A stretch of 64,000 nt of DNA from Candidatus Rokuibacteriota bacterium (GCA_003221515.1 QHSI01000129.1:6646-70645); one strand, 5' to 3'; numbered from the stretch's first letter, positions 4,542 to 35,327 are shown. The notes: generated by a model from the sequence alone, not told the origin. Made by a program: numbers and translations.

Positions 4542-7500
4542 CTAGCGGTTCATGACCTCCGCCACCATTCGCGTCAGCGCGTCGGGCGTGAATGGCTTCG
4601 TGAGCAGCACGGTGCGCGGATCGAGCACGCCGTGGTGCACGATCGCGTCGCCCGTATAGCCCGACATGTACAGCACCTTCATCTCGGGCCGCGCCGGCGC
4701 CAGCCGATCGGCGAGGTCGCGCCCGCTCATCTCCGGCATGACGACGTCGGTCAACAGCAGGTGGATCGGCCCCGTGTGCCCGCGCGCGACCTCCAGCGCC
4801 TCGTTCGGGCCGCCGGCCGACAGGACCGAGTAGCCGGCGATCCCGAGGACCTCGGTGGCAAGCGAGCGGAGCTCGCCTTCGTCCTCGACGACGAGCACGG
4901 TACCGGAGGCGCGGACCGGCGGTACGGTCTCGACCGTGGCGCTCCTGTGGACGGGCGCCGAGACGCGCGAGAGATAGATGCTCACCGCGGTGCCGGCGCC
5001 CAGTGCGCTCTCGAGCCGCACGTACCCGTCGTGCTGCTTGACGATGCCGTAGACGGTCGCGAGCCCGAGCCCGGTGCCCTTGCCGACCCCTTTGGTCGTG
5101 AAGAACGGTTCGAAGACGTGGGCCTGGACCTCGGGGCTCATTCCGATCCCGGTGTCGCGCACGCGGAACATCGCGTGCGGTCCAAGGCTCGAGCCCGGAT
5201 GGGCGTCTACGAAGTCGGTGTCGAGCTCGACGTCGGCGGTCTCGATGCTCAGGCGCCCGCCCTGCGGCATCGCGTCGCGCGCGTTCACCGCCAGGTTCAG
5301 GATGATCTGCTCGATCTGCGCGGGGTCGGCCTTGACGCGGCCGAGCGTGGGGTCGAGCACCGTGATCAGCTCGATCGTCTCGCCGATCAGGGGCTTGAGC
5401 ATCTGGGCCATGTTCCCCACCACGTCGTTGAGATCGAGCACGCGCGGCTGGAGCATCTGCTTGCGGCTGAAGGCGAGCAGCTGCTGGGTGAGGGACGCCG
5501 CGCGGTCCGCCGTCTTCTTGACCAGCTCGATGTCGCGCCGCCGCGGGTCGTCGGCGGTGAGGCGGAGCAGGAGCAGCTCGGTCCGGCCGGTGATGACCGT
5601 GAGGAGGTTGTTGAAGTCGTGCGCGATCCCGCCGGCGAGCCGGCCGACCGCTTCCATCTTCTGGGCCTGACGCAGCTGCGCCTCGCTCTGGCGCAGCGCC
5701 TCTTCGGCGCGCTTGCGCTCGGTGATGTCCAGCACCGTCGACTGGATGGCGGGCTCGTTCTCCCAGAGGATTGCCGAGACCTGGATGTCGAACCAGACGA
5801 GCGAGCCGTCTTTCCTCACGGCCTGGGACTCGTACTGCGAAGGCACCGCCTCGCCCCGTAGCCGCGCCGCAAGGTAGCCCTCGAGCCGGGGCAGCTCGGC
5901 GGGCGCCATCCATCGGCGAGAGTCGATGCCGATGAGATCGCTCACGCTCTCGTAGCCCAGCATCCGCGCGAACGTCGAGTTGACGAAGAGCGTGACCCAG
6001 CTCCGGTGGATGTGGATGCCCTGGATGGAGCCTTCCACGAGCGTCCGGTACCGTCGCTCGCTCTCCCGCTCGCGCGCGAACAGCTGGGCGTTCCGGAGGG
6101 CGATGGCGGCCTCGTCGGCCAGGCGCGACAGGACGGCCTCGTCGTGATCGGTGAACGGTCGCGGCGAGCGGTTGGCGACATAGATGAGCCCGATCGCGCG
6201 ATCCGCGCTCTTGATCGGCACCGCCATGGCGGCGACGGTCTCGTTGGCACGGGCGCGGTCGAGATATGCCTTGTCGAAGGACGCGTCGTTCGGATAGTCA
6301 TCGGTCCGGCACGGCCGGCCGGTCAGGAGCGCGCGGCCGCCGAGACCCTTGCCCGGCTCGATGAGGTTGGGTCGCGCGGGCATGTCGCGCGCGCCGACGG
6401 CGTAACGCACGGTGACCGGCTCCTCGTCGTCCTCCCGGAACCCGATCAGCGCCAGGTCGCTGCGCGCGAGCTCCTTCGCCCCGTCGGTGATCCGCCGCAG
6501 CACCGCCTCGACGTCGAGGGAGACGGTGAGCGCACGGGAGACGTCGGCCAGGACCTCCGACTCCCGGCGGCGCCGCTCGCTGTCCTCGAACAGGCGCGCG
6601 TTCTCGAGCGCGAGCGCCGCCTGGGTGGCGAACGCCTGCAGGAGCTCGACCTGTCGCTGGGAGAACGGCCCGACGTCGTCCCGATACGTGACGAGCGCGC
6701 CGAGCACGCGATCACCGACGAGCAACGGCGTGGAGAGCACCGCCCGGTAGCCCTCGGCTTCGACCGCCGCGCGAGTCGTTGGTGCCAGGTCGAAGTCCGG
6801 ATCGTTGAGCAGATCCGCCGACCAGACGGGTCGTCGCTGGGCGATGGCGGCGGGCGTGGTGCCGTCGCGCGGGTGCCGGGGTCGCATGCCCGCGGGGAAT
6901 CCCCGGCTCATGCCGCGGCTGGCCTGGAACCCGAAGGGGCTCCCGGGCTCGCCGGCGTTCAGGAGCGCGACCGCCGAGCGCTGGGTCCCGAGCAGGGCGC
7001 AGGCGCGGTCCACGACGAACGAGAGGATCTCCTGGAGGTCGAGGGACGACGTGATCGCGCTGCCGAGCTCGGCGAGCGCCTCCGCCTCGTGGCGCCGCGC
7101 GGCGCTGTCGGTGAACAGGCGCGCGTTGCCGATCGCGACGGCGGCATGGTCGGCGAGGCCGAGCAAGATGTGCTCGTCGCGATCGGTGAGGATCCGGTCA
7201 TCCCGGTTCGACACCGCCAGGAATCCCTCGACCCCCTCCTCGATCTTGATCGGGACCGCCATGTACGCGCGCATGCCTTCCTCGCGCGCGATCGTCGCGA
7301 ACGTCGGGGAGATCCGGGGATCCTCGAGGTAGCGGTCCGTCCGGAACGGACGGCCGTTGACGAGGACGAGACCGGCGGCGCCCTGCCCCGGCGCGATGCG
7401 CATCGAGCGGTAGCCGTCGTACTCCGCGCCCGGCCAGTGGCGGAACTCGACGCTGTCGGTGCTCGGATCACGCAGCGCGACGAACGACATGTCGCTCTGG

Positions 7501-8219
7501 CACACCCCGCGGGCGCCCTCGGCGATTCGCTGCAGCACCGTCGACAGATCGAGCGACGTGTTGATGGTGCGTACCACCGCCGCCAGTAGCTCGGACTCGC
7601 GTCGGCGCCGCTCGGTCTCTTCGTAGAGCCGGGCGTTTACGATGGCGATGGCGGCCTGGTCCGCCAGGAGCCCGCAGAGATTCCGCTCCTCGGGCGTGAA
7701 GGCGCCGCGCTGGCCGAAGGCCACGATCAGCGCGCCGACCGCGCGCTCCTGATGCAGCAGCGGCTGTGCGATGCACGCGTGGAGGTCGGCTTCCCTCGCC
7801 AGCACCGGGTTGAGCCAGCGGGGATCCCGCTGCACGTCTTCGACGTACTCGGGCCGCCGCGACTGCAGGACGTCCGCGGACAGGCTGCCCTTGCGAGAGA
7901 CCGGCACGATCGTGGCAGGCGCCCGCGTCGCGAGCCTCGCGTCCGCCCAGTAGCTCCCGGCCTCCTTCAGCCGCTCGCCGCCGGCGTCGATCCAGACGTA
8001 CGCCATCTTCGCCTTGAGCAACGTCGAGGCCGCCTCGGCGATGCCGCGGAAGACGGCGTCGCTGTCGGTCGCCGACGTGATGAGGCGCGTCAGCTGGCTG
8101 AGCGTGGTGAGGCGTTCGGCGCGCTCCTCGGCCTGCTGGATCAGCCGGGTCCGCGGGCTCGGGGTCTTCGACGCCGTGCGCCGGCCCGGCCGCGGCCTGG
8201 ACTTACTCGGCTTGCTCAA
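4542..8219 (-). CDS. Hybrid sensor histidine kinase (4xGAF-PAS-HisKA-HATPase-REC)
   Basis: Four GAF repeats ending in NARL(Y/F), PAS (YESQAVRKDGS), GGIAHDFNNLL, EPFFTTKGVGKGTGLGL, C-terminal LLLTDVVMP receiver; TTG start uncertain. Confidence 0.9.
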   Translation of the reverse strand: MSKPSKSRPRPGRRTASKTPSPRTRLIQQAEERAERLTTLSQLTRLITSATDSDAVFRGIAEAASTLLKAKMAYVWIDAGGERLKEAGSYWADARLATRAPATIVPVSRKGSLSADVLQSRRPEYVEDVQRDPRWLNPVLAREADLHACIAQPLLHQERAVGALIVAFGQRGAFTPEERNLCGLLADQAAIAIVNARLYEETERRRRESELLAAVVRTINTSLDLSTVLQRIAEGARGVCQSDMSFVALRDPSTDSVEFRHWPGAEYDGYRSMRIAPGQGAAGLVLVNGRPFRTDRYLEDPRISPTFATIAREEGMRAYMAVPIKIEEGVEGFLAVSNRDDRILTDRDEHILLGLADHAAVAIGNARLFTDSAARRHEAEALAELGSAITSSLDLQEILSFVVDRACALLGTQRSAVALLNAGEPGSPFGFQASRGMSRGFPAGMRPRHPRDGTTPAAIAQRRPVWSADLLNDPDFDLAPTTRAAVEAEGYRAVLSTPLLVGDRVLGALVTYRDDVGPFSQRQVELLQAFATQAALALENARLFEDSERRRRESEVLADVSRALTVSLDVEAVLRRITDGAKELARSDLALIGFREDDEEPVTVRYAVGARDMPARPNLIEPGKGLGGRALLTGRPCRTDDYPNDASFDKAYLDRARANETVAAMAVPIKSADRAIGLIYVANRSPRPFTDHDEAVLSRLADEAAIALRNAQLFARERESERRYRTLVEGSIQGIHIHRSWVTLFVNSTFARMLGYESVSDLIGIDSRRWMAPAELPRLEGYLAARLRGEAVPSQYESQAVRKDGSLVWFDIQVSAILWENEPAIQSTVLDITERKRAEEALRQSEAQLRQAQKMEAVGRLAGGIAHDFNNLLTVITGRTELLLLRLTADDPRRRDIELVKKTADRAASLTQQLLAFSRKQMLQPRVLDLNDVVGNMAQMLKPLIGETIELITVLDPTLGRVKADPAQIEQIILNLAVNARDAMPQGGRLSIETADVELDTDFVDAHPGSSLGPHAMFRVRDTGIGMSPEVQAHVFEPFFTTKGVGKGTGLGLATVYGIVKQHDGYVRLESALGAGTAVSIYLSRVSAPVHRSATVETVPPVRASGTVLVVEDEGELRSLATEVLGIAGYSVLSAGGPNEALEVARGHTGPIHLLLTDVVMPEMSGRDLADRLAPARPEMKVLYMSGYTGDAIVHHGVLDPRTVLLTKPFTPDALTRMVAEVMNR

Positions 8220-9453
8220 TGTCGAAGCGCAAGCGGGCGTGGGCCTCGCGCAGCGCCCGCTCGACCGCGACGGGGGTGTCGGCGCGCGCGAAGATGAACC
8301 CGAGGTACTGCCAGCCCTCGGGGAGCGGCACCACCGTCTGGCCGGGATGCATCGTCACCGCGACTTCCTCGATCCCGTCGACCGCGGTGGCTTCGTCGCG
8401 CCCCGTCACCGCGCGCAACCGACCCGCGCGCGGAATCGGGATCATCATCACGCCGGCGGCTCGCTGCTCACGCTCGAGCGAGTCCAGCGGGCGGCCGAGG
8501 GCGTGGCAGAGGATCAGCTCCTCGAGGCTCACGCCGGTGCCGAAGCGTAGCGTCTGGGAGCAGAGGCCGCCGATCGAGCGCGCCGCGACCTCGAGGACCC
8601 ACGGGCCCTGCTCGTTGACGCGCAGCTCGGCGTGGACGGGTCCTTCGGTCAGTCCGAGCGCCGCGCACGCGTCGCGGCTCACCGCCGCGATGCGGGCCTG
8701 CGTGGCCCCAGGCAGCCGGGAGGGCGTGACGTAGATGGTCTCCTCGAAGAACGGCCCGTCGAGCGGATCCGGCTTGTCGAAGAGGGCCAGGACGTGGAGC
8801 GTGCCGCCGACCAGCAGCCCTTCGAGGGCGACCTCGCGTCCGGGCACGAACGCCTCGACGAGCAGGGTGCGCCGCGCTTTGTCGGGAAGCGAAGCCTCGA
8901 CCTCGGCCAGGATCGCCGCGATGCGCCCGAAGGCCGCGACGAATTCTCGCGCGTCGTTCGCGCGGATCACGCCGCGGCTCGCCGAGAGCATGCGCGGCTT
9001 GAGGACGCACGGGTACTCGACCTGCTGGGCGATGGCGCGTGGATCGTGGCTCAAGTCGACGAGGCGGAAACGAGGCACCGGAACGGACGCGTCGGCGAGG
9101 CATCGGCGCATCGCGTGCTTGTCGCGCGCGGTGGTGACGGCGGGCAGGGGATTCGTCTTGAGCCCGAGCCGCGCGCTGATGGCGGCGGCCACGACCGTGG
9201 TGAGATCGTCGACCGCGACGACGGCGTCGATCGGCCGGCGGCGCGCGAGCCGGGCGATCGCCTCCGCGCTGGCGGACGCATCGTTGAAGTCGAGCGTGAC
9301 GAGGTTGTCGGGCGCGTGCTCCTGCAGCGTGCTCGGCCGCTCCGAGGCGCACACGAGCTCGACGCCCATCCGGGTCGCGGCGGCGACGAACGCCTCGGTG
9401 CGATACGTCGTGGTGGGGAGCAGGAGCAGCAACCGGCTCGCCGAAGTCGGCAC
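8203..9453 (-). CDS. ATP-grasp domain ligase
   Basis: YPCVLKPRMLSASRGVIR, LLVEAFVPGREVALEG, GPVHAELR, VLEVAARSIGG. Confidence 0.85.
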   Translation of the reverse strand: MPTSASRLLLLLPTTTYRTEAFVAAATRMGVELVCASERPSTLQEHAPDNLVTLDFNDASASAEAIARLARRRPIDAVVAVDDLTTVVAAAISARLGLKTNPLPAVTTARDKHAMRRCLADASVPVPRFRLVDLSHDPRAIAQQVEYPCVLKPRMLSASRGVIRANDAREFVAAFGRIAAILAEVEASLPDKARRTLLVEAFVPGREVALEGLLVGGTLHVLALFDKPDPLDGPFFEETIYVTPSRLPGATQARIAAVSRDACAALGLTEGPVHAELRVNEQGPWVLEVAARSIGGLCSQTLRFGTGVSLEELILCHALGRPLDSLEREQRAAGVMMIPIPRAGRLRAVTGRDEATAVDGIEEVAVTMHPGQTVVPLPEGWQYLGFIFARADTPVAVERALREAHARLRFDIEQAE

Positions 9454-9488
9454 TGACGTCTCCTGCCTGCGCGCGGCGGCGCGGGGAG

Positions 9489-9770
9489 CTAGGCTTTGCC
9501 CGGCGTGTAGTACGGGTTGTTGCCCGCGGCGTGATCGGTCGTGTCGAGCACTTCCGTGACCTCGGGGAGCTCGTCCTTGATCAACCGCTCGATCCCCGAC
9601 TTCAACGTGACGTCCGCGGCGCCACAGCCCTGGCAGCCGCCGCCCATCTGGAGGTAGACACGATTGTCCTGCACGTCGATCAGCTCGACGAAGCCGCCGT
9701 GACCGGCAACCGCGGGATTGATCATCGTGTCGATCAGCTCTTGAACTTTCGTCTTGAGTTCAGCGCTCAT
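9489..9770 (-). CDS. NifU/NfuA-type Fe-S carrier
   Basis: INPAVAGHGG, GGGCQGCG (CxxC), TLKSGIE; GAGGTG RBS. Confidence 0.9.
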   Translation of the reverse strand: MSAELKTKVQELIDTMINPAVAGHGGFVELIDVQDNRVYLQMGGGCQGCGAADVTLKSGIERLIKDELPEVTEVLDTTDHAAGNNPYYTPGKA

Positions 9771-9780
9771 GCGGCACCTC

Positions 9781-11211
9781 TCAGATGGATACTGTACCCG
9801 AGATCCGGCTCAGGGCCAACTGGCCCTCGGTGGGCTCTGCTCAGCAGAACCAGGGCTCGGTGAGCCGTGGCGCCCGCTTCCGGCCCGCGGCTGGCGCTGG
9901 GAACGATTGGTGCTCGGCGCCCGCGGCCCGGCCGGCCAGCGCCCGCACGCGATCGAACGTGATGGCCGCGTCCTCTCGCTGGGCGGCCGCGGCGGCGACG
10001 GCGGCCGACACCCCCGCATGCAGCGCCTCCATGCCCGGGTCCGGATGCGTCCATCGGTAGTGGAACTGGTCCCTCACCAGCGGGCCCAGGTAGGGGCGCA
10101 GCGCCGGACCGTCGAGCAGGAGCGATCCGGGCGGGACCAGGAGGCGGATCGAGTACTGCACGGGATCGATGGCGTCGACGAGTTGGTGGGCCTCGACGAA
10201 GTCCAGCAGCTCCCGGTAGTCGTCCAGGGTCGTCCACGGCGTGAAGGGCACCCACGTCGGGCGCAGCGTGATGCCGGCCGAGCGCACGGCATCGAGCGCG
10301 GTCTCGATGTCGGCGCGGGTGTGGCCCTTGTCCAGATGCGCCAGGACGGTGTCGCTGAGCGACTCCGCGGCGGTGACGATGAACGCGCATCCCTGCCGCG
10401 CGAGCTCCGGCAACCGCTCTCGGTGGCGCAGCAGGTGCTCGACCTTCGCCGTGAAGTCGAACGTGAGCCCGGGGAACTCCGCGTGGACCGCCTGCGTGAC
10501 GGCCAGCGCGTGGCCCGGGCCGTTCAGGAAGTCGGGGTCGCCGAACGTGATGTGGGTTGCCCCCGCCGCCACCTGCTGCCGGACGTCGGCGAGCAGCACC
10601 TCGAGCGGCACGACGAAGAAGCGGCCGCCGTAGACGGGCGGGATCGGGCAATGACGGCAGAGATGCTTGCACCCGCGGCTCGCCTCGACGTGGCCCGCGA
10701 GCTCGAGGCCGCCGTCGCGCTCGAGCTGCGCGTATCTCTTCAAGATCGGAAGCTTCGCGCGGCTCGGCACCGGAAACGGCAGCTTCTCCAGCGTCGGCGC
10801 GACGGGGGCGTCGCGCGTCCGCCCGACCGCGCCGGCCTCCAGCCGCTGAACGAGGCGCACCAGGGCGGACTCGATCTCGCCGCTCATCACCGAGTCGCCG
10901 ACGCCGGACAGCAGATGGTCGGCGTTGAGCGTGGCGTAGAGCCCGTAGAAGGCGATGTAGCAGCCGGGGTTGATGGCCCGCACGCGCTCGGCGACGACGA
11001 CCCCGAGACGGAGCGCCGTGTGCATCGGCACCGAGATCGCCACGAGCTTCGCGCGCGCGACGCGCTCGGCGTCGAGCGGGTCGACCGACACGTCGACCAC
11101 CGCCGGCGAATAGCCGGCACGCTCGAGGAACGCGGCCGGCCAGGCGACCGTGAGGGGCTGGTGGCCGAGCTCGTAGCAGGCGACCAGGAGGATCGCGCCG
11201 GGCTCCTTCAC
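9781..11211 (-). CDS. CUAEP-tail radical SAM selenoprotein (ArsL-like, N-terminal B12-binding-like domain); UGA at 9843-9841 read as Sec, 476 aa
   Basis: CKHLCRHC (CxxxCxxC); the frame continues past TGA as WFC-U-AEPTEGQLALSRISGTVSI to TGA at 9783-9781, which abuts the RBS of the nfu gene. Confidence 0.85.
9800..9838 (-). promoter_or_regulatory. Candidate bacterial SECIS hairpin
   Basis: mRNA AGGGCC-AGUU-GGCCCU (9827-9812); loop begins 19 nt after UGA and has G at position 2; lower stem can extend through CCG/CGG and GAG/CUC. Confidence 0.65.
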
Positions 11212-11279
11212 GCCGCCAGTGTACCTCCGGGGGTGCTATCTTGTGGGCGCTGCTTTACCTCCAAGGAGGACTGATCCCG

Positions 11280-11489
11280 ATGAGCGTCAAGATCACGGCC
11301 CGCCCGAATGGTCCGCTCCTGGTCGAAGGCGAGTGCGAAGTCTACGATCCGACCGGCGCCCGCATCGACACGGCGGGCCAGCCCAGGATCGCGCTCTGCC
11401 GGTGCGGGGGTTCCTCGACGAAGCCCATGTGCGATGGGACGCACAACAAGATCGGCTTCCAGGCTTCCGAGGCAGCCAAGAAGAAGTAG
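11280..11489 (+). CDS. CDGSH iron-sulfur domain protein
   Basis: AAGGAGGA RBS; ALCRCGGSSTKPMCDGTH. Confidence 0.9.
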   Translation: MSVKITARPNGPLLVEGECEVYDPTGARIDTAGQPRIALCRCGGSSTKPMCDGTHNKIGFQASEAAKKK

Positions 11490-11491
11490 GC

Positions 11492-11788
11492 CTACGGCGC
11501 CGCCGGAGCGTCGGACTCGGGCTCGACGTCCGTCAGCAAGATCCAGTCGTCCGGCGGGTCTGGATCCGGGCGTACCCCGACCTGGGAGCTGACAGTCCGG
11601 CCTCGGCTCGGCGAGAACCACTCCCACACGCCTGCGGGCGCGCCCGTTTCCTGCGCCTCGCCGATCTCGGGTCCCGTCGCGCCGGATTCGGCGCGCTCGG
11701 TCTTCCGCTGCCGCTTCGCTTCCTGCTTCGCCTTCTGGATGTCGGCCCGGCGCCGTCGCTCGAAGCCGTAGTGACGCTGGGCGCTCAT
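11492..11788 (-). CDS. Small hypothetical protein
   Basis: 98 aa; charged N-terminal helix, WEWFSPSRG and PDDWILLTD segments; GC3-biased codons. Confidence 0.55.
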   Translation of the reverse strand: MSAQRHYGFERRRRADIQKAKQEAKRQRKTERAESGATGPEIGEAQETGAPAGVWEWFSPSRGRTVSSQVGVRPDPDPPDDWILLTDVEPESDAPAAP

Positions 11789-11865
11789 GAGCCGCTCTCG
11801 CGCGATGTCGTCGTCATAAGTTCGTCGGCACTCCCCTGTCCAGCTGACGTGCAGAAAGGGCTGAG

Positions 11866-12331
11866 CTAGCAGCGCAGCCGGCTGCTCCTCCAGTAACATC
11901 CGGGCCCGTAGAACGATCCGGGGTAGTACGGATAGTACCAGCGATTGTATCGCTCGTATTCGAGTGCCCGCCAGGCCTCGCTCGCTTCCTGCACCAGCTC
12001 GGCCTCGTCCTCCAGGCCGGCCGCCGCGAAAGCGCGCGTTTCCTCGGGGAGCGGTTTCGTGCGAATCAGCTTGAGGAGCCGCTGGGCCTGCGCGGCCAGC
12101 CGTCGCTCGGGCTGGAGGCCGGCGAAGGCGGTCAGGTGCTCTTCAGCTCGGTCCAGGTCGCCCTTTCTGAGGTGGCTGAGGCCCAGATAGAGCCTCGCCG
12201 TCGCCTCTCCGGGGGCGCGGGCCACGGCTCGCTCCAGGACCTCGATCGCCTCGTCCAACGCGCCGAGCTTGTAGCGCGCGATCCCCAGGCCACGTTGTCA
12301 CGCAACCGGCCAGCGCGAGCGTGACGAGCAT
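11866..12331 (-). pseudogene. TPR lipoprotein broken by an apparent out-of-frame internal deletion near 12295
   Basis: Lipobox MLVTLALAGC is in one frame; TPR helices RGLGIARYKLGALDEAIEVLERAV and ARLYLGLSHLRKGD are in another; Tyr/Pro/Gly-rich tail. Confidence 0.6.
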
Positions 12332-13784: not shown

Positions 13785-14477
13785 TCACCCCCGCCACGGG
13801 GGAAATTTGTGGAAGAAGACGCGCAGCATCCGCTCGTCGAACTCCTGGTCGAAGGTTGGCGTGGGCGGATAACGGTGATGGAGCGAATGCGCCTCGAGCA
13901 CGAGGAGGCCGGACGATCTGATCAGTCGCGCCAGCAGATCGAGGCCCGGCAGAACGTGGAGGAAGTCGGCCCAGACCGACGGCGGGTGCCCCGGGAACAT
14001 CTCGCTCAGCATCAGGTCGACCACGAGGAGCGAACTGGCGTCGCCAAGCGCGACGAGGTGGTCGAAGCCCCGCGCCAGCGCCCGCTGATCACGGGCGTGG
14101 TTGAGCACGGCCCCGACCGCGGTGACGATCGAGAACGGCCCGCGCGCGGCGACGGCGGCGACGTCGCCCGCGTCGAACAGGTCGGCGCGCAGCAGCCGCG
14201 TCTGGAGCTTCGGGTGTCGGCGAGCCGCCGTCTCGAGGAGCTTCTCCTCGACGTCGGTCATGAGGACGTCGTAGCCGCGCTCCAGCGCCACCGCCGCCAG
14301 GTCGCCCATGCCGCCGCCGACCTCGAGCCAACGCGCGCCGAGGTGGAGCTCGCGCCGGTACCGGGCGACCGACTCCCACAGGTCGAAGGACGCGGGCGTC
14401 AGGTGTGACGTGATCTCGTCGGCGGAGATTCCCAGGTAATAGTCCTGGATCTCGCGCCGGCGCCGGCTCTCCCGCAT
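13785..14477 (-). CDS. Class I SAM-dependent methyltransferase
   Basis: WLEVGGGMG motif I, TDVEEKLL, RADLFD. Confidence 0.7.
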   Translation of the reverse strand: MRESRRRREIQDYYLGISADEITSHLTPASFDLWESVARYRRELHLGARWLEVGGGMGDLAAVALERGYDVLMTDVEEKLLETAARRHPKLQTRLLRADLFDAGDVAAVAARGPFSIVTAVGAVLNHARDQRALARGFDHLVALGDASSLLVVDLMLSEMFPGHPPSVWADFLHVLPGLDLLARLIRSSGLLVLEAHSLHHRYPPTPTFDQEFDERMLRVFFHKFPPWRG

Positions 14478-24055: not shown

Positions 24056-25309
24056 CTACGGCCGGGCGATCTCGTGCAGATACCACTCCGTGTAGCGGAT
24101 CACGTTGTACTCGCGCTTCGTGGAGTAGGGCCCGGGCGTGAACGCGGACGAGCTCACGCCGGCCTGGTTCTTCTCGCACAGGTTCCAGTCCTGGATGCTC
24201 GTGAGCTCCCAGAACGGCAGCAGCGCGTCGAGCGCGTAGTCCCTGCCCTCGACGGCGTCCTCGTGGACGAGCCACTGCACCTGTACCCGCGTCGTCTGCG
24301 GGCCCGCCGGCACCAGGCGCGTCGACACGGCGTGATCGCTGCTCGCGTGGTTCCAGAAGTTCGGCATCGTCCGCATGCGCAGCGTGCCGACGTCGCGCGT
24401 CGAGTAGCGTCCCATCAGGGGCGCGACCGGCCGGCCGTCCATCGACTCGGTGACCCAGCCCGGCACCAGCGGCGTGCGGTTGATCGACCACCAGCAATCT
24501 TGTGACGGGAAGCGCACCATGCCCGCCTCGCGGTAGTCGATCAGGAGGCCGTCGGCTTCGAGCCGCTCCGAGGTCGCGCGGGCCTGCGCCTCGATCTCGC
24601 GGCGGAGCGCCGGGTCGTCGATCGGCGCATTGTCGTAGTTGGCCTTGACGTACTGGGGATGATTCGCGTGGCAGTGCCAGCACTCCCGGTTGTTCTCCCA
24701 CACGAGCTTCCAGTTCGCGCGCACCTCGTAGTCGCGCACGGCCGCGACCTTCGCGCGCTCGAACCCCTGCGGCGCGAGCTGCGGGGCGAGGTCCTGTGCG
24801 GCCGGCTCGAACGGGACCGGATCGGCGGCGGCCAGGCACACGAAGACGAGCCCGCCGACCTCGCGGACGTGCGCGCGATGCAGGCCGTAGTCGCGCCGAT
24901 CGAGGTCGCCGTCTCGGTCCATCCCGCCGCAGGCCACCAGATCGCCGTTACGGGCGTACGACCACTGGTGATACGGGCAGACGATGCGAGCGGCGTGGCC
25001 GGACTCGGCCTGGCAGACCTTCATCCCGCGATGGCGGCAGGTGTTGTGGAGCGCGTGGATCTTCTCGTCGTCGCCACGGATGACGATGACCGAGTCGGTG
25101 TCCACGTCGAAGACGAAGTAGTCGCCCGGGCGCTTCACCTGACAGGCGTGGCCGGCGAAGAGCCAGCCGCGGCGCCAGATGCGCTCCAGGTCGAGCTGGT
25201 AGATTCCGGGATCGGTCTGGAACTCGCGCGGCAGCGCGTGGCCGGCCTCGTGCTCGGCGATCAGACGATCGAGCAGCGCCCGGGCTTCGGCGGTCGCCAT
25301 CGTCCGCAT
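24056..25309 (-). CDS. Rieske non-heme iron oxygenase alpha subunit (GbcA/betaine demethylase-like)
   Basis: CRHRG and CPYHQW Rieske motifs; NWKLVWENNRECWHCHANHP; QDWNLCEKNQ. Confidence 0.85.
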   Translation of the reverse strand: MRTMATAEARALLDRLIAEHEAGHALPREFQTDPGIYQLDLERIWRRGWLFAGHACQVKRPGDYFVFDVDTDSVIVIRGDDEKIHALHNTCRHRGMKVCQAESGHAARIVCPYHQWSYARNGDLVACGGMDRDGDLDRRDYGLHRAHVREVGGLVFVCLAAADPVPFEPAAQDLAPQLAPQGFERAKVAAVRDYEVRANWKLVWENNRECWHCHANHPQYVKANYDNAPIDDPALRREIEAQARATSERLEADGLLIDYREAGMVRFPSQDCWWSINRTPLVPGWVTESMDGRPVAPLMGRYSTRDVGTLRMRTMPNFWNHASSDHAVSTRLVPAGPQTTRVQVQWLVHEDAVEGRDYALDALLPFWELTSIQDWNLCEKNQAGVSSSAFTPGPYSTKREYNVIRYTEWYLHEIARP

Positions 25310-27756
25310 TATAGGCGGAGGCGGGCGCCGGCCGGATCGTACAGCACGTCCGGTGCGACCTCGGCGGCGTGGCGCGTGCCGAACGCTTCGATCTCGAGCG
25401 GCGTGCCGGTGCCGGCCAGCGCCGGCGGCAGATAGACGAAGCCGATGTGCTTACCGACCGTGTAGCCCCAGCCGGCGCTCCGCAGCCGGCCCATCACGCG
25501 ACCGTCCGCGTAGACCGCTTCGCCGCCGTAGAGATCGGAGTCGTGCGGGAGCGCAGGCGTCAGCGTGATCGTGCAGAGCTTCCGCTGGACGCCCGCGGCC
25601 TTGATCTGGAGCAGCGCGTCGCGTCCGATGAAGTCGCCCTTGTGCAGCCGCACGCAGAAGCCGAGTCCCGCTTCGTACGGGTTCTCGGCCGGCGTGAGGT
25701 CGCTGCTCCAATACCGATAGCCCTTCTCGAGCCTCAGCGAGTCGACGGCCTTGTAGCCGGCCGGCTCGACGCCGAGAGGGCGGCCGGCGGCCAGCAGCGC
25801 GTCCCACACGGCGACGGCGTGCTCGTTCGGAACGTAGAGCTCCCAGCCGAGCTCGCCCACGTACGTGACGCGCTGCGCCTGCACGCGAACGCCGGCCAGG
25901 TCGATCCAGCGCGCGGACATATAAGGGAGCGCCTCGTTGGACACGTCGCTCGTCGTGACCCTCGCCAGCACGCGGCGCGCCGCGGGTCCCCAGAGGCCGA
26001 TGCACGCGAGCTGGTCGGTGACGTCGCGCGCCTCCACGCCCCGGGACGGCATGTGCATCCGGATCCAGCCGAGGTCGCTCGCCAGGAAGTTGCTGCCCGT
26101 CGTCACCCGGAAGCGATCCTCGGCCCAGCGGGTGATGGTCAGATCGCTCTCGATCCCGCCGCGCGGGTTCAAGAACTGCGTGTAGACGACGCTGCCGGGC
26201 GGACGGTCGACGTCGTTGTCGGCGAGCCGCTGGAGCAGCGCCAGCGCCCCCGGCCCGGTCACGTCGAGCTTGCCGAACGAGGTGAAGTCGAAGAGCCCGG
26301 CGCGCTCGCGCACCGCGCGATGCTCGGCGCCCACGCGCTCGAAGAACCGCGGCCGCGCCCAGCCCCACGCGCGCTGATCCGTGCCGGCGCGCCGCCCGGC
26401 GGCGCCGGGCTCGAAGTAGTTCGCCCGCTCCCAGCCGTTCTTCTCGCCGAACACGGCGCCGGCGTCGGCGAGACGCGCGTCGAGCGGGCTCGGCCGGCGC
26501 CCGCGGGCCCACTCGTTCTCGTCGTGTGGGTACCGGAGCATGTAGTAGTACCTGTACGATTCGCGCGCCCGCTCGGCGGCGTAGGCGCGATCGGCGTAGA
26601 CGGAGCCGAAGCGCCGCACGTTCAGCTCCGTCACGTCGTAGGGCGGCTCGCCGTCGACGAGCCAATCGGCGAGGATCGCGCCGATCGCGCCGCCGGCGCC
26701 GAAGCCCGTGTGGGAGAGGCCGGCCGCCATCCAGAAGCCCGGCACGCCCGGCAGGGGGCCGAGCAGGGGACGGCTGTCCGGCGTGATGCCCTCGGGACCG
26801 TTCACCAGGTGCGCGAGCTCGGCCTTCGCGAGCACGGGCACGCGGCGGATGGCGCCCTCGAGGATCTCGTCGAACAGCTCCCAGTCGGACGGCAGGAGCG
26901 TTTGCGCGAAGTCCCACGGCACGCCGTCGATCGACCACGCGACGGGACTCCGCTCGAAGCCGCCGATCAGGAAACCGCCGACTTCCTCGCGCATGTAGAC
27001 GAGGTTCTCCGGATCGCGCAGGCACGGCGTCCGGCGGCCGAGCTCGTGCCCGGGCATCGGCTTCGTGGCCAGGTGCTGGTGGACCAGCGGCGTGATCGGC
27101 AGGCTGACGCCGACCATCGCGGCGATCTGAGCGGCCCACATGCCGCCCGCGTTGACGATGCACTCGGTCCTGATCGCGCCGCGGTGGGTCTCGACCGCCG
27201 TGACCTCGCCGCGCGCCCCGCGCGTGATGCCGGTGACCCGCACCCCCGTGAGGATCTCGACGCCCAGTCGGCGGGCCCGCGCGGCCAGCTCCATCGTGGC
27301 GCCGCTCGGATCGATCCAGCCATCGCCGGGCAGGTACATCGCGCCGTACAGATTGTCGCCGGACATGAGGGGAAAGATGCGCAGCGACTCGGCCGGCGAG
27401 ATCGTGTCCACGTCGAGGCCGATCGCCTTTGCCATGCCGACTTGCCGCTCGAGGAACCGGAGCTGATCGCGGCTCGACGCGACGCGAAGACTGCCGACCT
27501 CGTGCCAGTGCTCGACCGATCCCGGCTCTGCCTGCAAGCGTCGGTAGAGTGCGATCGAATACTGCCGCATGCGCATGAGCGTCGGCGACGTGTGGAAGTG
27601 CGTGACCATCCCCGCCGCATGCCAGGTCGTTCCGCTCGTCAGCTCACCCTTGTCCACGAGCACCACATCCGTCCACCCCTTCTCCGCCAGATGAAACGCA
27701 ACGCTACACCCCGCGATCCCCCCACCAATGATGACGACGCGTACCTGACTCTTCAT
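25309..27756 (-). CDS. GcvT-family FAD-dependent oxidoreductase (dimethylglycine/sarcosine dehydrogenase-like)
   Basis: IIGGGIAG, TSGTTWHAAG, NGPEGITPD, GEKNGWERANYF, DSLRLEKGY; TAATG coupling to the Rieske gene. Confidence 0.85.
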   Translation of the reverse strand: MKSQVRVVIIGGGIAGCSVAFHLAEKGWTDVVLVDKGELTSGTTWHAAGMVTHFHTSPTLMRMRQYSIALYRRLQAEPGSVEHWHEVGSLRVASSRDQLRFLERQVGMAKAIGLDVDTISPAESLRIFPLMSGDNLYGAMYLPGDGWIDPSGATMELAARARRLGVEILTGVRVTGITRGARGEVTAVETHRGAIRTECIVNAGGMWAAQIAAMVGVSLPITPLVHQHLATKPMPGHELGRRTPCLRDPENLVYMREEVGGFLIGGFERSPVAWSIDGVPWDFAQTLLPSDWELFDEILEGAIRRVPVLAKAELAHLVNGPEGITPDSRPLLGPLPGVPGFWMAAGLSHTGFGAGGAIGAILADWLVDGEPPYDVTELNVRRFGSVYADRAYAAERARESYRYYYMLRYPHDENEWARGRRPSPLDARLADAGAVFGEKNGWERANYFEPGAAGRRAGTDQRAWGWARPRFFERVGAEHRAVRERAGLFDFTSFGKLDVTGPGALALLQRLADNDVDRPPGSVVYTQFLNPRGGIESDLTITRWAEDRFRVTTGSNFLASDLGWIRMHMPSRGVEARDVTDQLACIGLWGPAARRVLARVTTSDVSNEALPYMSARWIDLAGVRVQAQRVTYVGELGWELYVPNEHAVAVWDALLAAGRPLGVEPAGYKAVDSLRLEKGYRYWSSDLTPAENPYEAGLGFCVRLHKGDFIGRDALLQIKAAGVQRKLCTITLTPALPHDSDLYGGEAVYADGRVMGRLRSAGWGYTVGKHIGFVYLPPALAGTGTPLEIEAFGTRHAAEVAPDVLYDPAGARLRL

Positions 27757-33655: not shown

Positions 33656-34546
33656 TCAGCGCGGTCGGACGCCGAGCAGCTCGATCGCTGCGCGCACCGG
33701 ATCGTAGTCGCGGTCGTCGGCCGGCGCGAACCCGTCGATCTCGTAGAGGCGCTTGAGCAGCGCAGCGTAGGCGGGCGCGCGGATCTGCAGGAGAGCGGCC
33801 CGCACCTTCGCGAAGGTCGCCGCGTCGAGACCGTCGCGGGCGGCGATGCCGGCCTCGGGAATCTCCGGCGTCTCCGCGACGACAACGATGCGCTCGCGCT
33901 CGGCCGGATCGCTGAGATACTGCTCGCGCGCCATGTCGAACGAGGCCAGCGCGTCGACGTGGCTGTTGAGCAGCGCGCGCATGCCCGCGTCGTGCGCTCC
34001 GGCGAAGACCACCTCGCGGAAGAACGTCTTGGGGTCCCGGTTCTTCACGAGCCCGCGCTGGATCAGCAGCACCATCGGATAGATGTAACCCGACGAGCTC
34101 GCGGGATCGATGAACGCCATGGTCTTGCCGCGCAGCTCCTCCAGCGTTTTGAGCCCGGACTCGCGGCGCACGTAGATGCGCGAGGTGAAGGAGCTCTTGC
34201 CGTGCCAGAGGTTCCGCACCATGATCGTCGCCTTCGCCTCGCGACTCGCCAGCACGTAGCCGCCCGGATGGACGAACGCCAGATCGGCGGTGCGGTTGCG
34301 CAGCGCCTCGATCACCGCGGCGTAGTCCGACGCGACCGTCACCCGCACGGGAATGCCGGTGAGCGTGGTGATGACCTTGCCGAACTCGTCGCCGGTGGCC
34401 ATGAGGTCGGTGGGCTTCTGCGAGGGCGTGAGGACGAGGTGCAGCCCGTCGGCGCCGAAGGCCGGGCGCGCCGCTCCGAGCGACACGAGCGCGCACAGCG
34501 CGACGAGCCCGAGAATGCGTGGGATCACCGGCGGTGAGTGTACCAT
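33656..34546 (-). CDS. phnD: Phosphate/phosphite/phosphonate ABC substrate-binding protein
   Basis: ASDYAAVIEALR, FIDPASSSGYIYP, FAGAHDA, DRDYDPVR. Confidence 0.85.
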   Translation of the reverse strand: MVHSPPVIPRILGLVALCALVSLGAARPAFGADGLHLVLTPSQKPTDLMATGDEFGKVITTLTGIPVRVTVASDYAAVIEALRNRTADLAFVHPGGYVLASREAKATIMVRNLWHGKSSFTSRIYVRRESGLKTLEELRGKTMAFIDPASSSGYIYPMVLLIQRGLVKNRDPKTFFREVVFAGAHDAGMRALLNSHVDALASFDMAREQYLSDPAERERIVVVAETPEIPEAGIAARDGLDAATFAKVRAALLQIRAPAYAALLKRLYEIDGFAPADDRDYDPVRAAIELLGVRPR

Positions 34547-34619
34547 CGCCCGTAGTGTGCGCCGCAGGCCGTCGCGGGGCTGGGGCCCCGCCGGCGAGGC
34601 GCGGATACCAACGGAGGTC

Positions 34620-35327
34620 ATGAGCGTGCTCCGCCCCGGATTCATCTGGGCTCTGCTCCTCGTCGCCGCGGGCGCGGGCGGCGTCTATCTGGCGGACCGG
34701 CTCGTCCTGGCGCCGGGGCGCGAGCACCAGCGACAGATCGAGGAACGCGACGCGCAGATCCGCACCTTGACGGAGCGCAACCAGGCCCTCGAGGCGGCGG
34801 TGCGCCTGCTCCGGCACACCGAGCGGCGCGCGCGGCTCGTCGTGCTGGACCAGGCGCGCGGCCCCGACGGTCACGTGCGGACCCGCGTCCGGTTCACCGA
34901 GCTCGACTCCCAGGGCGACATCGTCGGCGAGCCGCGCGAGCTCACGCTCGAGGGCGACGAGGTGTACGTCGACGCGCTCGTGATCAAGTTCGAAGACAAC
35001 TTCGTGACCGCCGGCGACGCGCTCAAGGGCAAGGCGCTGCTCCTCTTCCGGCGAGTCTTCACCGATCGCCGCCGGCCCGCGGAAGGCGACGTGCTGGACC
35101 GGGAGGGGCAGATCCCGCAGAGCTACGCGGCCGAGCGGGCGCCAACCGCGTTCGAGCGCGAGCTCTGGGCGCGCTTCTGGGAGCTGGCCAACGATCCCGA
35201 CGAGGCTCGGCGGCGCGGCGTGCGGGCCCTGCACGGCGAGGCGGTCTCGACCCGGCTGCGCAAGGACCGTACCTACACGATCACGCTGCGCTCGACGGGC
35301 GAGCTGACGATCCTGCCGACTCAGTAA
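34620..35327 (+). CDS. Membrane-anchored hypothetical protein (TM, coiled coil, beta-rich domain)
   Basis: GGAGG RBS; EGDEVYVDALVIKF, LLFRRVF, WARFWELANDP; strong GC3 bias. Confidence 0.75.
   Translation: MSVLRPGFIWALLLVAAGAGGVYLADRLVLAPGREHQRQIEERDAQIRTLTERNQALEAAVRLLRHTERRARLVVLDQARGPDGHVRTRVRFTELDSQGDIVGEPRELTLEGDEVYVDALVIKFEDNFVTAGDALKGKALLLFRRVFTDRRRPAEGDVLDREGQIPQSYAAERAPTAFERELWARFWELANDPDEARRRGVRALHGEAVSTRLRKDRTYTITLRSTGELTILPTQ

Follow-up and report, generated by a model that had tools for sequence, protein, structure and literature searches.

The window analysed here, that is, the whole stretch of 64,000 nt from Candidatus Rokuibacteriota along which all coordinates are counted, has a G+C content of ~70% and carries, on its minus strand, a compact group of genes led by that of a predicted selenocysteine (Sec)-containing radical S-adenosylmethionine (SAM) enzyme. 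This gene (9781..11211, minus strand) starts at a GTG (11211), contains an in-frame TGA (9843..9841), reaches its true stop at 9783..9781 and encodes a 476-aa CUAEP-tail protein, including Sec457, which matches family NF040546. It is followed by an nfu gene (9489..9770, minus strand) for a 93-aa Nfu-type Fe-S carrier, consisting of a NifU C-terminal domain (PF01106, 85.5 bits) with a CQGC motif, and by the gene of a 416-aa ATP-grasp enzyme of the L-amino-acid-ligase type (8203..9453, minus strand) with the Pfam domains ATP-grasp_4, LAL_C2 and ATPgrasp_N. The tight packing described in the initial annotation was confirmed, the gaps being 10 nt and 35 nt long with a ribosome-binding site (RBS) in each. 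In fact, its statement that the extended stop of the radical SAM gene abuts the nfu RBS is literally true, since the ten bases GAGGTGCCGC between the true stop and the nfu ATG (9770) include GAGGTG, while the GTG of the ligase gene (9453) begins 35 nt past the end of nfu (9489) and is preceded by an AGGAGA RBS.

Downstream, the gene of a 1225-aa hybrid histidine kinase (4542..8219, minus strand; four GAF domains, PAS, HisKA, HATPase and receiver, by Pfam) starts 17 nt inside the ligase gene, overlapping its stop, and may therefore be the last gene of the operon. It follows the ligase gene in all Rokubacteria-type loci, and only in Rokubacteria. The locus is an operon in the order radical SAM, nfu, ligase, possibly extending into the GAF/PAS histidine kinase, which may regulate the operon or be co-expressed with it. 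On the opposite strand, the divergent gene for a CDGSH [2Fe-2S] protein (PF09360, 63.1 bits) was found as previously reported, its open reading frame (ORF) spanning 11241..11489; since the orthologues are 68–69 aa long, the likely start is the ATG at 11280 (gene 11280..11489, plus strand). The motif C-x-C-x(8)-C-D-G-[ST]-H is present as CRCGGSSTKPMCDGTH. Beside this gene there is a 135-aa ORF (11492-11899, minus strand) with no Pfam match and with 63–82% identity in the Rokubacteria loci L007-L012. The closest relatives of the window belong to Candidatus Rokubacteria/Methylomirabilota; P0005, encoded in GCA_003220435.1, is 87% identical, with the entire neighbourhood in synteny.

Gene callers cut the radical SAM ORF to 456 aa at the UGA. 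Its read-through gives ...RLTEPWFC-U-AEPTEGQLALSRISGTVSI, the C-terminus being PWFC-U-AEPTEGQ, and places a Cys456-Sec457 pair (TGC TGA, 9841..9846, minus strand) in the tail P-R-L-T-E-P-W-F-C-U-A-E-P-T, a motif kept across phyla. The C-U/C-A-E-P tail motif is also present in 75 other genomes with a readable tail, where the Sec codon position is occupied by TGA in 60 cases and by TGC or TGT in 15, the consensus P-[RH]-L-[TS]-E-x-W-[FY]-C-[U/C]-A-E-P-T-x-x-Q being common to the Sec and Cys forms across phyla. A candidate Sec insertion sequence (SECIS) hairpin (AGGGCC / loop AGUU / GGCCCU; 9812..9827, minus strand) begins 14 nt past the UGA. A hairpin of 5–7 bp with the loop AGUU(N), located ~15 nt past the UGA, occurs in 52 of the 57 Sec genes and is absent from the Cys-type genes; its stem positions 2–5 covary, either through C-G/U-A/G-C switches or as G-C/A-U. 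Moreover, the mean folding energy of the 48 nt from the codon on was -16.4 kcal/mol in the Sec genes vs -10.6 in the Cys genes (Mann-Whitney p = 2e-5). The ungapped RNAalifold consensus was weak because the loops are 4 or 5 nt long, and the stem count was made in a register-aware manner instead.

On these sequence grounds, the in-frame UGA is predicted to encode Sec, and the downstream hairpin to be a bacterial SECIS element. Reading the UGA as a genuine stop was ruled out by the hairpin, by the Cys orthologues and by the conserved peptide past the UGA. The assignment of the gene to a CUAEP-tail selenoprotein in the initial annotation is hence borne out by the SECIS covariation, the Cys orthologues and the NF040546 score. 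Sec is used by ~80% of the NF040546 members sampled. A search of Rfam matched no SECIS or other RNA family, no Rfam model fitting this bacterial element; ARAGORN found no tRNA, and hence no tRNA-Sec, in the 64-kb window, and no sel gene (selA, selB, selC, selD) was present among the window genes scanned. A 2026 review of prokaryotic selenoproteins (PMC13188914) lists the radical SAM selenoproteins TIGR04167 and TrsS, without NF040546.

Among the NCBIfam models, NF040546 ('CUAEP/CCAEP-tail radical SAM (seleno)protein') gave 686.2 bits against a cutoff of 500, aligning residues 7-466 with positions 1-467 of the 468 in the model. The ArsL model, NF040542, came second with 312.7 bits against a cutoff of 450 (compared with 656 bits for true ArsL representatives), and no other model exceeded 46 bits. 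The only invariant Cys residues in 45 diverse family members are C181, C185 and C188, which form the radical SAM CxxxCxxC motif (10648..10671, minus strand; predicted [4Fe-4S] ligands), and C456 of the tail. Alignment with four true ArsL proteins, with RCC[LI]KC ends, was collinear at 34–38% identity, and a common [FY]E.G.QP motif (YELGHQP in the window enzyme, FEGGYQP in ArsL) agrees with the N-terminal resemblance to ArsL that had been pointed out before. At the other end, the C-U pair falls opposite the vicinal CC in the RCCLKC tail of ArsL, a Pro stands at the position of the third As-binding Cys, and the window enzyme has ~45 extra residues before the tail relative to ArsL. As regards the proposed likeness to ArsL, the comparison of models upheld it as the nearest characterised relative and did not uphold membership, since the score lies below the cutoff and the tail offers two chalcogen ligands, not three. 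The window enzyme is therefore placed by its sequence in NF040546, a putative sister family of ArsL, and is not ArsL itself.

Pfam recognised Radical_SAM (PF04055) and a B12-binding-like N-domain in the protein, the latter (PF02310, B12-binding) with 32.3 bits against a cutoff of 32.1. The AlphaFold model, built from a shallow alignment, had a predicted local distance difference test (pLDDT) value of 66.8, falling to less than 50 in the cluster loop and in the tail; with this low-quality model Foldseek returned the general Rossmann-plus-radical-SAM architecture, namely OxsB and TokK (both B12 users), AprD4 and MgmA. There is no ArsL structure in the PDB. The family itself is large, with at least 8000 homologue matches and 526 clusters (50% identity) at E < 1e-30, and at least 591 candidate stretches in species-level genomes encode a relative. 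NF040546 is named in NCBIfam and is called uncharacterised in the Haft 2022 preprint; the window gene is an ordinary member of a family already named, although functionally uncharacterised.

With respect to the partner proteins, the ligase scored 113.7 bits for PF13535, 74.2 for PF18603 and 37 for PF18130. The closest solved structure is 3vot (BL00235; E = 2.4e-37) and the BacD model is matched with E ~1e-16; judged by its domains, the ATP-grasp enzyme is of the predicted L-amino-acid-ligase type. The nfu product reached only 94.4 bits on the NfuA model TIGR03341, whose cutoff is 269, and covered only the C-terminal part of that model. It is a single Nfu/NifU C-terminal domain far below the NfuA cutoff and, for this reason, not NfuA proper, so that the name given to it in the initial annotation had to be dropped.

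The conservation of this gene set was studied in 80 genomes fetched with the family alignment, all ORFs within 7 kb of the radical SAM gene being clustered and the clusters searched with Pfam. The L-amino-acid ligase is present in 31 of the 80 loci, upstream, downstream or convergent, with 51–80% identity to the window ligase, and in six phyla or groups: Methylomirabilota/Rokubacteria, Nitrospirota, Planctomycetota, Acidobacteriota, Chloroflexota and one Deltaproteobacteria metagenome-assembled genome (MAG). When only the 40 loci having at least 3 kb on either side are considered, the ligase gene lies within 3 kb in 18. The linkage of radical SAM and ATP-grasp genes across genomes, which had been named beforehand as a refutation test, is therefore kept. 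Conversely, the radical SAM gene was found in 12 of 27 metagenome loci of ligase orthologues with adequate flanks. Ligase loci with no CUAEP radical SAM gene in the flanks examined include L099, L100, L107, L109, L131, L155 and L164.

Nfu is a neighbour in 28 of the 80 loci, in several phyla, and YggX (Fe(2+)-trafficking, PF04362) in 17, directly upstream, in Chloroflexota and Myxococcota-type loci; both are mutually exclusive, one or the other being present in 45 of the 80. The CDGSH gene accompanies the radical SAM gene in six loci, all in Rokubacteria. The earlier claim of two Fe-S carriers was consequently overstated: the Nfu linkage is conserved, and the CDGSH protein, a neighbour in Rokubacteria alone, was rejected as a core component. 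Of the 40 well-flanked loci, 28 have some Fe-handling gene (Nfu, YggX or CDGSH) no more than 3 kb away. An Fmt-like formyltransferase, found in 11 loci, only in Chloroflexota, was not accepted as a core component either, as it remains beside YggX in this phylum even without the radical SAM gene; shared ancestry may therefore explain its linkage. DUF169 (PF02596) is a neighbour in 15 loci from Nitrospirota, Planctomycetota and Poribacteria. The DUF169 protein is Cys- and His-rich and recurs on the same strand in L016, L018, L021, L024, L033, L035, L039, L050, L076, L083 and L084, and a preprint places DUF169 of Nitrospina next to MerR, a YHS protein and HgcA-like genes.

Two gene fusions complete this picture. 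In an 850-aa protein (P0254), a ligase of the window subfamily (36% identity over 393 aa) is fused to a CCAAP-tail radical SAM enzyme, the latter scoring 318 bits on NF040546; being below the cutoff of 500, it may represent another, third subfamily that lies between NF040546 and ArsL. In a Streptosporangiaceae MAG, a 710-aa ORF (L168:6291-8423, plus strand) combines an NF040546 enzyme (tail PWYCCAEPT, ~620 bits) with a MerB-like domain which retains the C-x-x-D and FCS motifs, and in a related metagenome contig (L167:3838-5968, plus strand) the radical SAM and MerB-like genes have an 8-nt overlap. Among 5.8 billion proteins this rare MerB-like protein has eight homologues, and no MerB-like gene was found in the window, in the 80 genome loci or in 80 ligase-centred metagenome loci. 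The surrounding genes (P450, PhyH, sulfotransferase, AMP-binding, PP-binding, asparagine-synthase, BpsA_C) have the look of a natural-product cluster, to judge from their predicted products. Between the P450 and PhyH genes lies a conserved 59-aa ORF (L168:4124-4303 and L167:1668-1847, plus strand; MGHSDKPGDGCGGGRRxCGGNLLVDPAF...) with no Pfam match, which might encode a small protein that binds metal, or else a precursor peptide.

In ArsL, SAM's 3-amino-3-carboxypropyl group (ACP) goes to As(III) held by the Cys tail after cleavage of the C-gamma-S bond, an Fe-C(gamma) species open to nucleophilic attack being a possible route (bioRxiv 10.1101/2024.02.01.577332, 10.64898/2026.04.29.721666). 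As the homology to ArsL includes the tail, chemistry of this type is the most economical model for the window enzyme, and we tentatively favour, with somewhat less than even confidence, a reaction in which the ACP group passes to a heteroatom sited at the Cys-Sec tail and the resulting amino acid would then be extended by the ligase. The [4Fe-4S] cluster would cleave SAM at the C-gamma-S bond, in the fashion of ArsL, and the mobile Cys-Sec pair at the C-terminus would present the heteroatom that receives the ACP group, this heteroatom being either a two-ligand-bound ion (metal, metalloid or chalcogen) or the selenolate itself. The product would be an unusual free alpha-amino acid, which the L-amino-acid ligase would couple to a second amino acid at the expense of ATP, and Nfu, or YggX in other phyla, would keep the oxygen-sensitive cluster loaded. 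The tail has two ligands, one of them a selenolate, and would therefore suit a two-coordinate ion or organo-metalloid, or Sec acting as the nucleophile. Two kinds of amino-acid-activating partner were found, the L-amino-acid ligase (once fused, to the CCAAP-tail enzyme) and, in Actinobacteria, the AMP-binding/PP-binding genes, which argues for a free amino acid then put into a peptide bond. Similarly, that Nfu and YggX exclude each other as neighbours argues that the Fe-S cluster is demanding or labile. Carbon-metal(loid) chemistry is in keeping with the MerB-like fusion in Actinobacteria. In this scheme we infer where SAM is cleaved, what the tail does, which substrate is used and that a dipeptide is made.

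Several points weigh against this ACP transfer. Nothing in the sequence distinguishes it from 5'-deoxyadenosyl cleavage of the ordinary kind, ArsL has a third As-binding Cys that is missing here, and the tail could not be shown to reach the active site in the AlphaFold model, which is of poor quality. The linkage to the ligase is only ~45% in either direction, and eight of the 40 well-flanked loci lack any partner gene. Furthermore, ligase orthologues occur beside Nfu, or beside YggX and the formyltransferase, without the radical SAM gene, so the Fe-handling gene goes along with the ligase and not only with the radical SAM gene. Among the genes scanned in the window and the recurrent neighbours in the 80 genomes there was no ars, mer or selenium-metabolism family, and in the literature searched no functional study of NF040546 was found, the papers that mention the family calling it uncharacterised. 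Finally, a family so widespread and so strongly conserved looks more like core physiology than like a sporadic antibiotic cluster.

This last aspect leads to the alternative that survives best, although we consider it unlikely, in which the tail is a redox or nucleophilic centre whose Cys-Sec selenenylsulfide serves an ordinary 5'-deoxyadenosyl reaction, by giving electrons or by quenching a radical, as part of core or stress physiology. Most bacterial Sec residues are redox-active (PMC9312934, PMC13188914), and the tail can be likened to the GCUG tail of thioredoxin reductase. The size and conservation of the family, with its thousands of matches and hundreds of clusters, would be as expected, the coupling to Nfu or to Fe(2+)-trafficking YggX would be explained by an oxygen-labile cluster, and in some lineages the radical SAM gene occurs without the ligase. 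Nevertheless, such a role leaves the conserved ligase, the ligase fusion and the MerB fusion unexplained, and the homology to ArsL extends to the position of the tail.

A specifically arsenical pathway, as suggested by the initial annotation, is much harder to sustain, and we regard it as distinctly improbable. According to it, the Cys-Sec tail would bind As(III) or methylarsenite (MAs(III)), the product would be an arsinothricin-like amino acid, and the ligase would make a Trojan-horse dipeptide. It draws on ArsL being the nearest characterised relative, on the alignment of its As-binding vicinal CC with the C-U pair, and on the match of the window ligase to the BacD model, ligases of this type being known to dress toxic amino acids. 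Organoarsenicals such as MAs(III) are well served by sites with two ligands, the Cys pair of ArsI being an example, and the two-ligand tail would suit compounds of this kind. However, the score does not reach the ArsL cutoff, and Pro stands in for the third Cys; among the genes scanned in the window, and near the gene in the 80 genomes, there was no gene for arsM, arsR, arsN or arsenic efflux; and the family is far wider spread than arsenic operons would predict. A methyltransferase encoded at 13785..14477 was considered as a possible ArsM and rejected as unlikely, since it has no Cys and lies 2.3 kb off beyond unrelated genes. The missing third Cys, the lack of ars genes and the broad, conserved distribution weigh against a specifically arsenical or antibiotic role, and nothing ties the window enzyme to arsenic.

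There is likewise only a slim chance that the function concerns mercury or another heavy metal, the two-ligand Cys-Sec site binding an Hg(II)-like ion linearly and the enzyme forming or processing a carbon-metal bond. CU motifs are otherwise found in HgcA, MerT and MerB-like proteins (Haft 2022 preprint), in Streptosporangiaceae one family member carries a MerB-like domain as a fusion, and DUF169, the neighbour in 15 loci, stands beside HgcA-like genes in Nitrospina. Taken together, the MerB fusion, the remark of Haft on CU motifs and the DUF169/HgcA adjacency point loosely, as circumstantial evidence, to carbon-metal chemistry. Against it, the MerB link is limited to a tiny actinobacterial group and missing from the 160 other loci, no merA, merR, merT or merP gene is linked, and the synthesis of organomercurial amino acids has no known physiological role. 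The least probable alternative, and a very poor one, is the modification of a peptide or protein as in the maturation of ribosomally synthesised and post-translationally modified peptides (RiPPs), the substrate of the ATP-grasp enzyme being a peptide instead of free amino acids: many radical SAM and some ATP-grasp enzymes mature peptides and the actinobacterial cluster has its 59-aa ORF, but the ATP-grasp enzyme carries LAL_C2 and is closest to free-amino-acid ligases, no conserved small ORF lies beside the gene in the 80 genomes, and no SPASM or RiPP-recognition domain was detected.

Elsewhere in the window, the gene of a Rieske ring-hydroxylating oxygenase alpha subunit adjoins that of an 815-aa FAD oxidase-GCV_T fusion of the dimethylglycine/sarcosine-oxidase type (24056-27756, minus strand), and this pair is flanked by ABC transporter genes (28-33 kb) and by the gene of a phosphonate-type binding protein (33656-34645). 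A long same-strand polysaccharide-biosynthesis cluster occupies 37000-64000 (plus strand). It encodes a NusG-like protein, a GNVR chain-length protein, AAA and ParA-like ATPases, a sugar transferase and a Wzy-like ligase; further genes correspond to a luciferase-like monooxygenase, an AMP-binding enzyme, a GNAT protein, KAS III and an aminotransferase, and others to an epimerase/dehydratase, a flippase, an asparagine synthase and glycosyltransferases. Between 16001 and 18000 the G+C content drops to 0.63, compared with ~0.70, with few ORFs of high third-position G+C and no Rfam match.

Among the radical SAM enzymes of the CxxxCxxC kind, none but ArsL is known to date to cut SAM on the 'wrong' side and form a bond between carbon and a metalloid. 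The sister family exceeds it by far in size, with the at least 591 candidate stretches in species-level genomes referred to above, and is mostly Sec-dependent. Learning the product of NF040546 would extend non-canonical radical SAM chemistry and explain one of the rare Cys-Sec motifs. The outcome could be a new amino-acid or dipeptide metabolite, or else a new transformation of As, Se or Hg, in abundant uncultured phyla from soil and groundwater. In its widest form, which we put forward as a rather doubtful proposition, NF040546 would be a widespread, mostly Sec-dependent class of non-canonical radical SAM enzymes forging C-Se, C-S or C-metal(loid) bonds through aminocarboxypropyl transfer to an atom that the Cys-Sec tail either holds or contributes itself, a dedicated ligase turning the amino acid into a dipeptide; Rokubacteria, Nitrospirota, Planctomycetota, Acidobacteriota and Chloroflexota would then share a never-observed metabolite. 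The conserved partnership with a ligase and Fe-S helpers, as well as both fusions, appear to be undescribed so far. The neighbourhood and fusion data name the partners for co-expression, namely the ligase, Nfu or YggX, DUF169 and the MerB-like domain, and the natural Cys-type orthologues remove the need for selenoprotein expression.

Compared with known systems, there is a likeness to MerA, with its C-terminal CC tail, and to thioredoxin reductase, with its GCUG tail, in which a flexible vicinal pair brings a metal ion or electrons into the active site; the Cys-Cys/Cys-Sec pair is similar, although the host enzymes are unrelated and the likeness is one of analogy. Should the chemistry of ArsL hold here, Dph2 would have in common with the window enzyme that SAM is cleaved reductively at the C-gamma-S bond, yielding an ACP radical or an Fe-C intermediate, but Dph2 differs in its fold, has no CxxxCxxC motif and acts on a histidine of a protein. 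NfuA with LipA/MiaB is the example of an Nfu-type carrier dedicated to a radical SAM enzyme which needs cluster replacement. The pairing of such a carrier with a radical SAM enzyme is the same in the window, whereas no auxiliary-cluster Cys set is conserved and only the Nfu domain is present. As for the ligase, it has the same ATP-grasp_4 and LAL_C2 domain set as BL00235 (3vot) and BacD, of bacilysin, but belongs to a distinct, tightly conserved subfamily, 47–62% identical across phyla. ArsL itself shares with the window enzyme the Rossmann-like N-domain with [FY]E.G.QP, the CxxxCxxC core and a tail with vicinal chalcogen residues; it differs in its three tail Cys and its arsM/ars operon, compared with the W-F-C-U-A-E-P tail and the Nfu or YggX and ligase partners found here. 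With NF040546 the correspondence is full, the window gene being a full-length member with the exact CUAEP motif and differing from the family in nothing.

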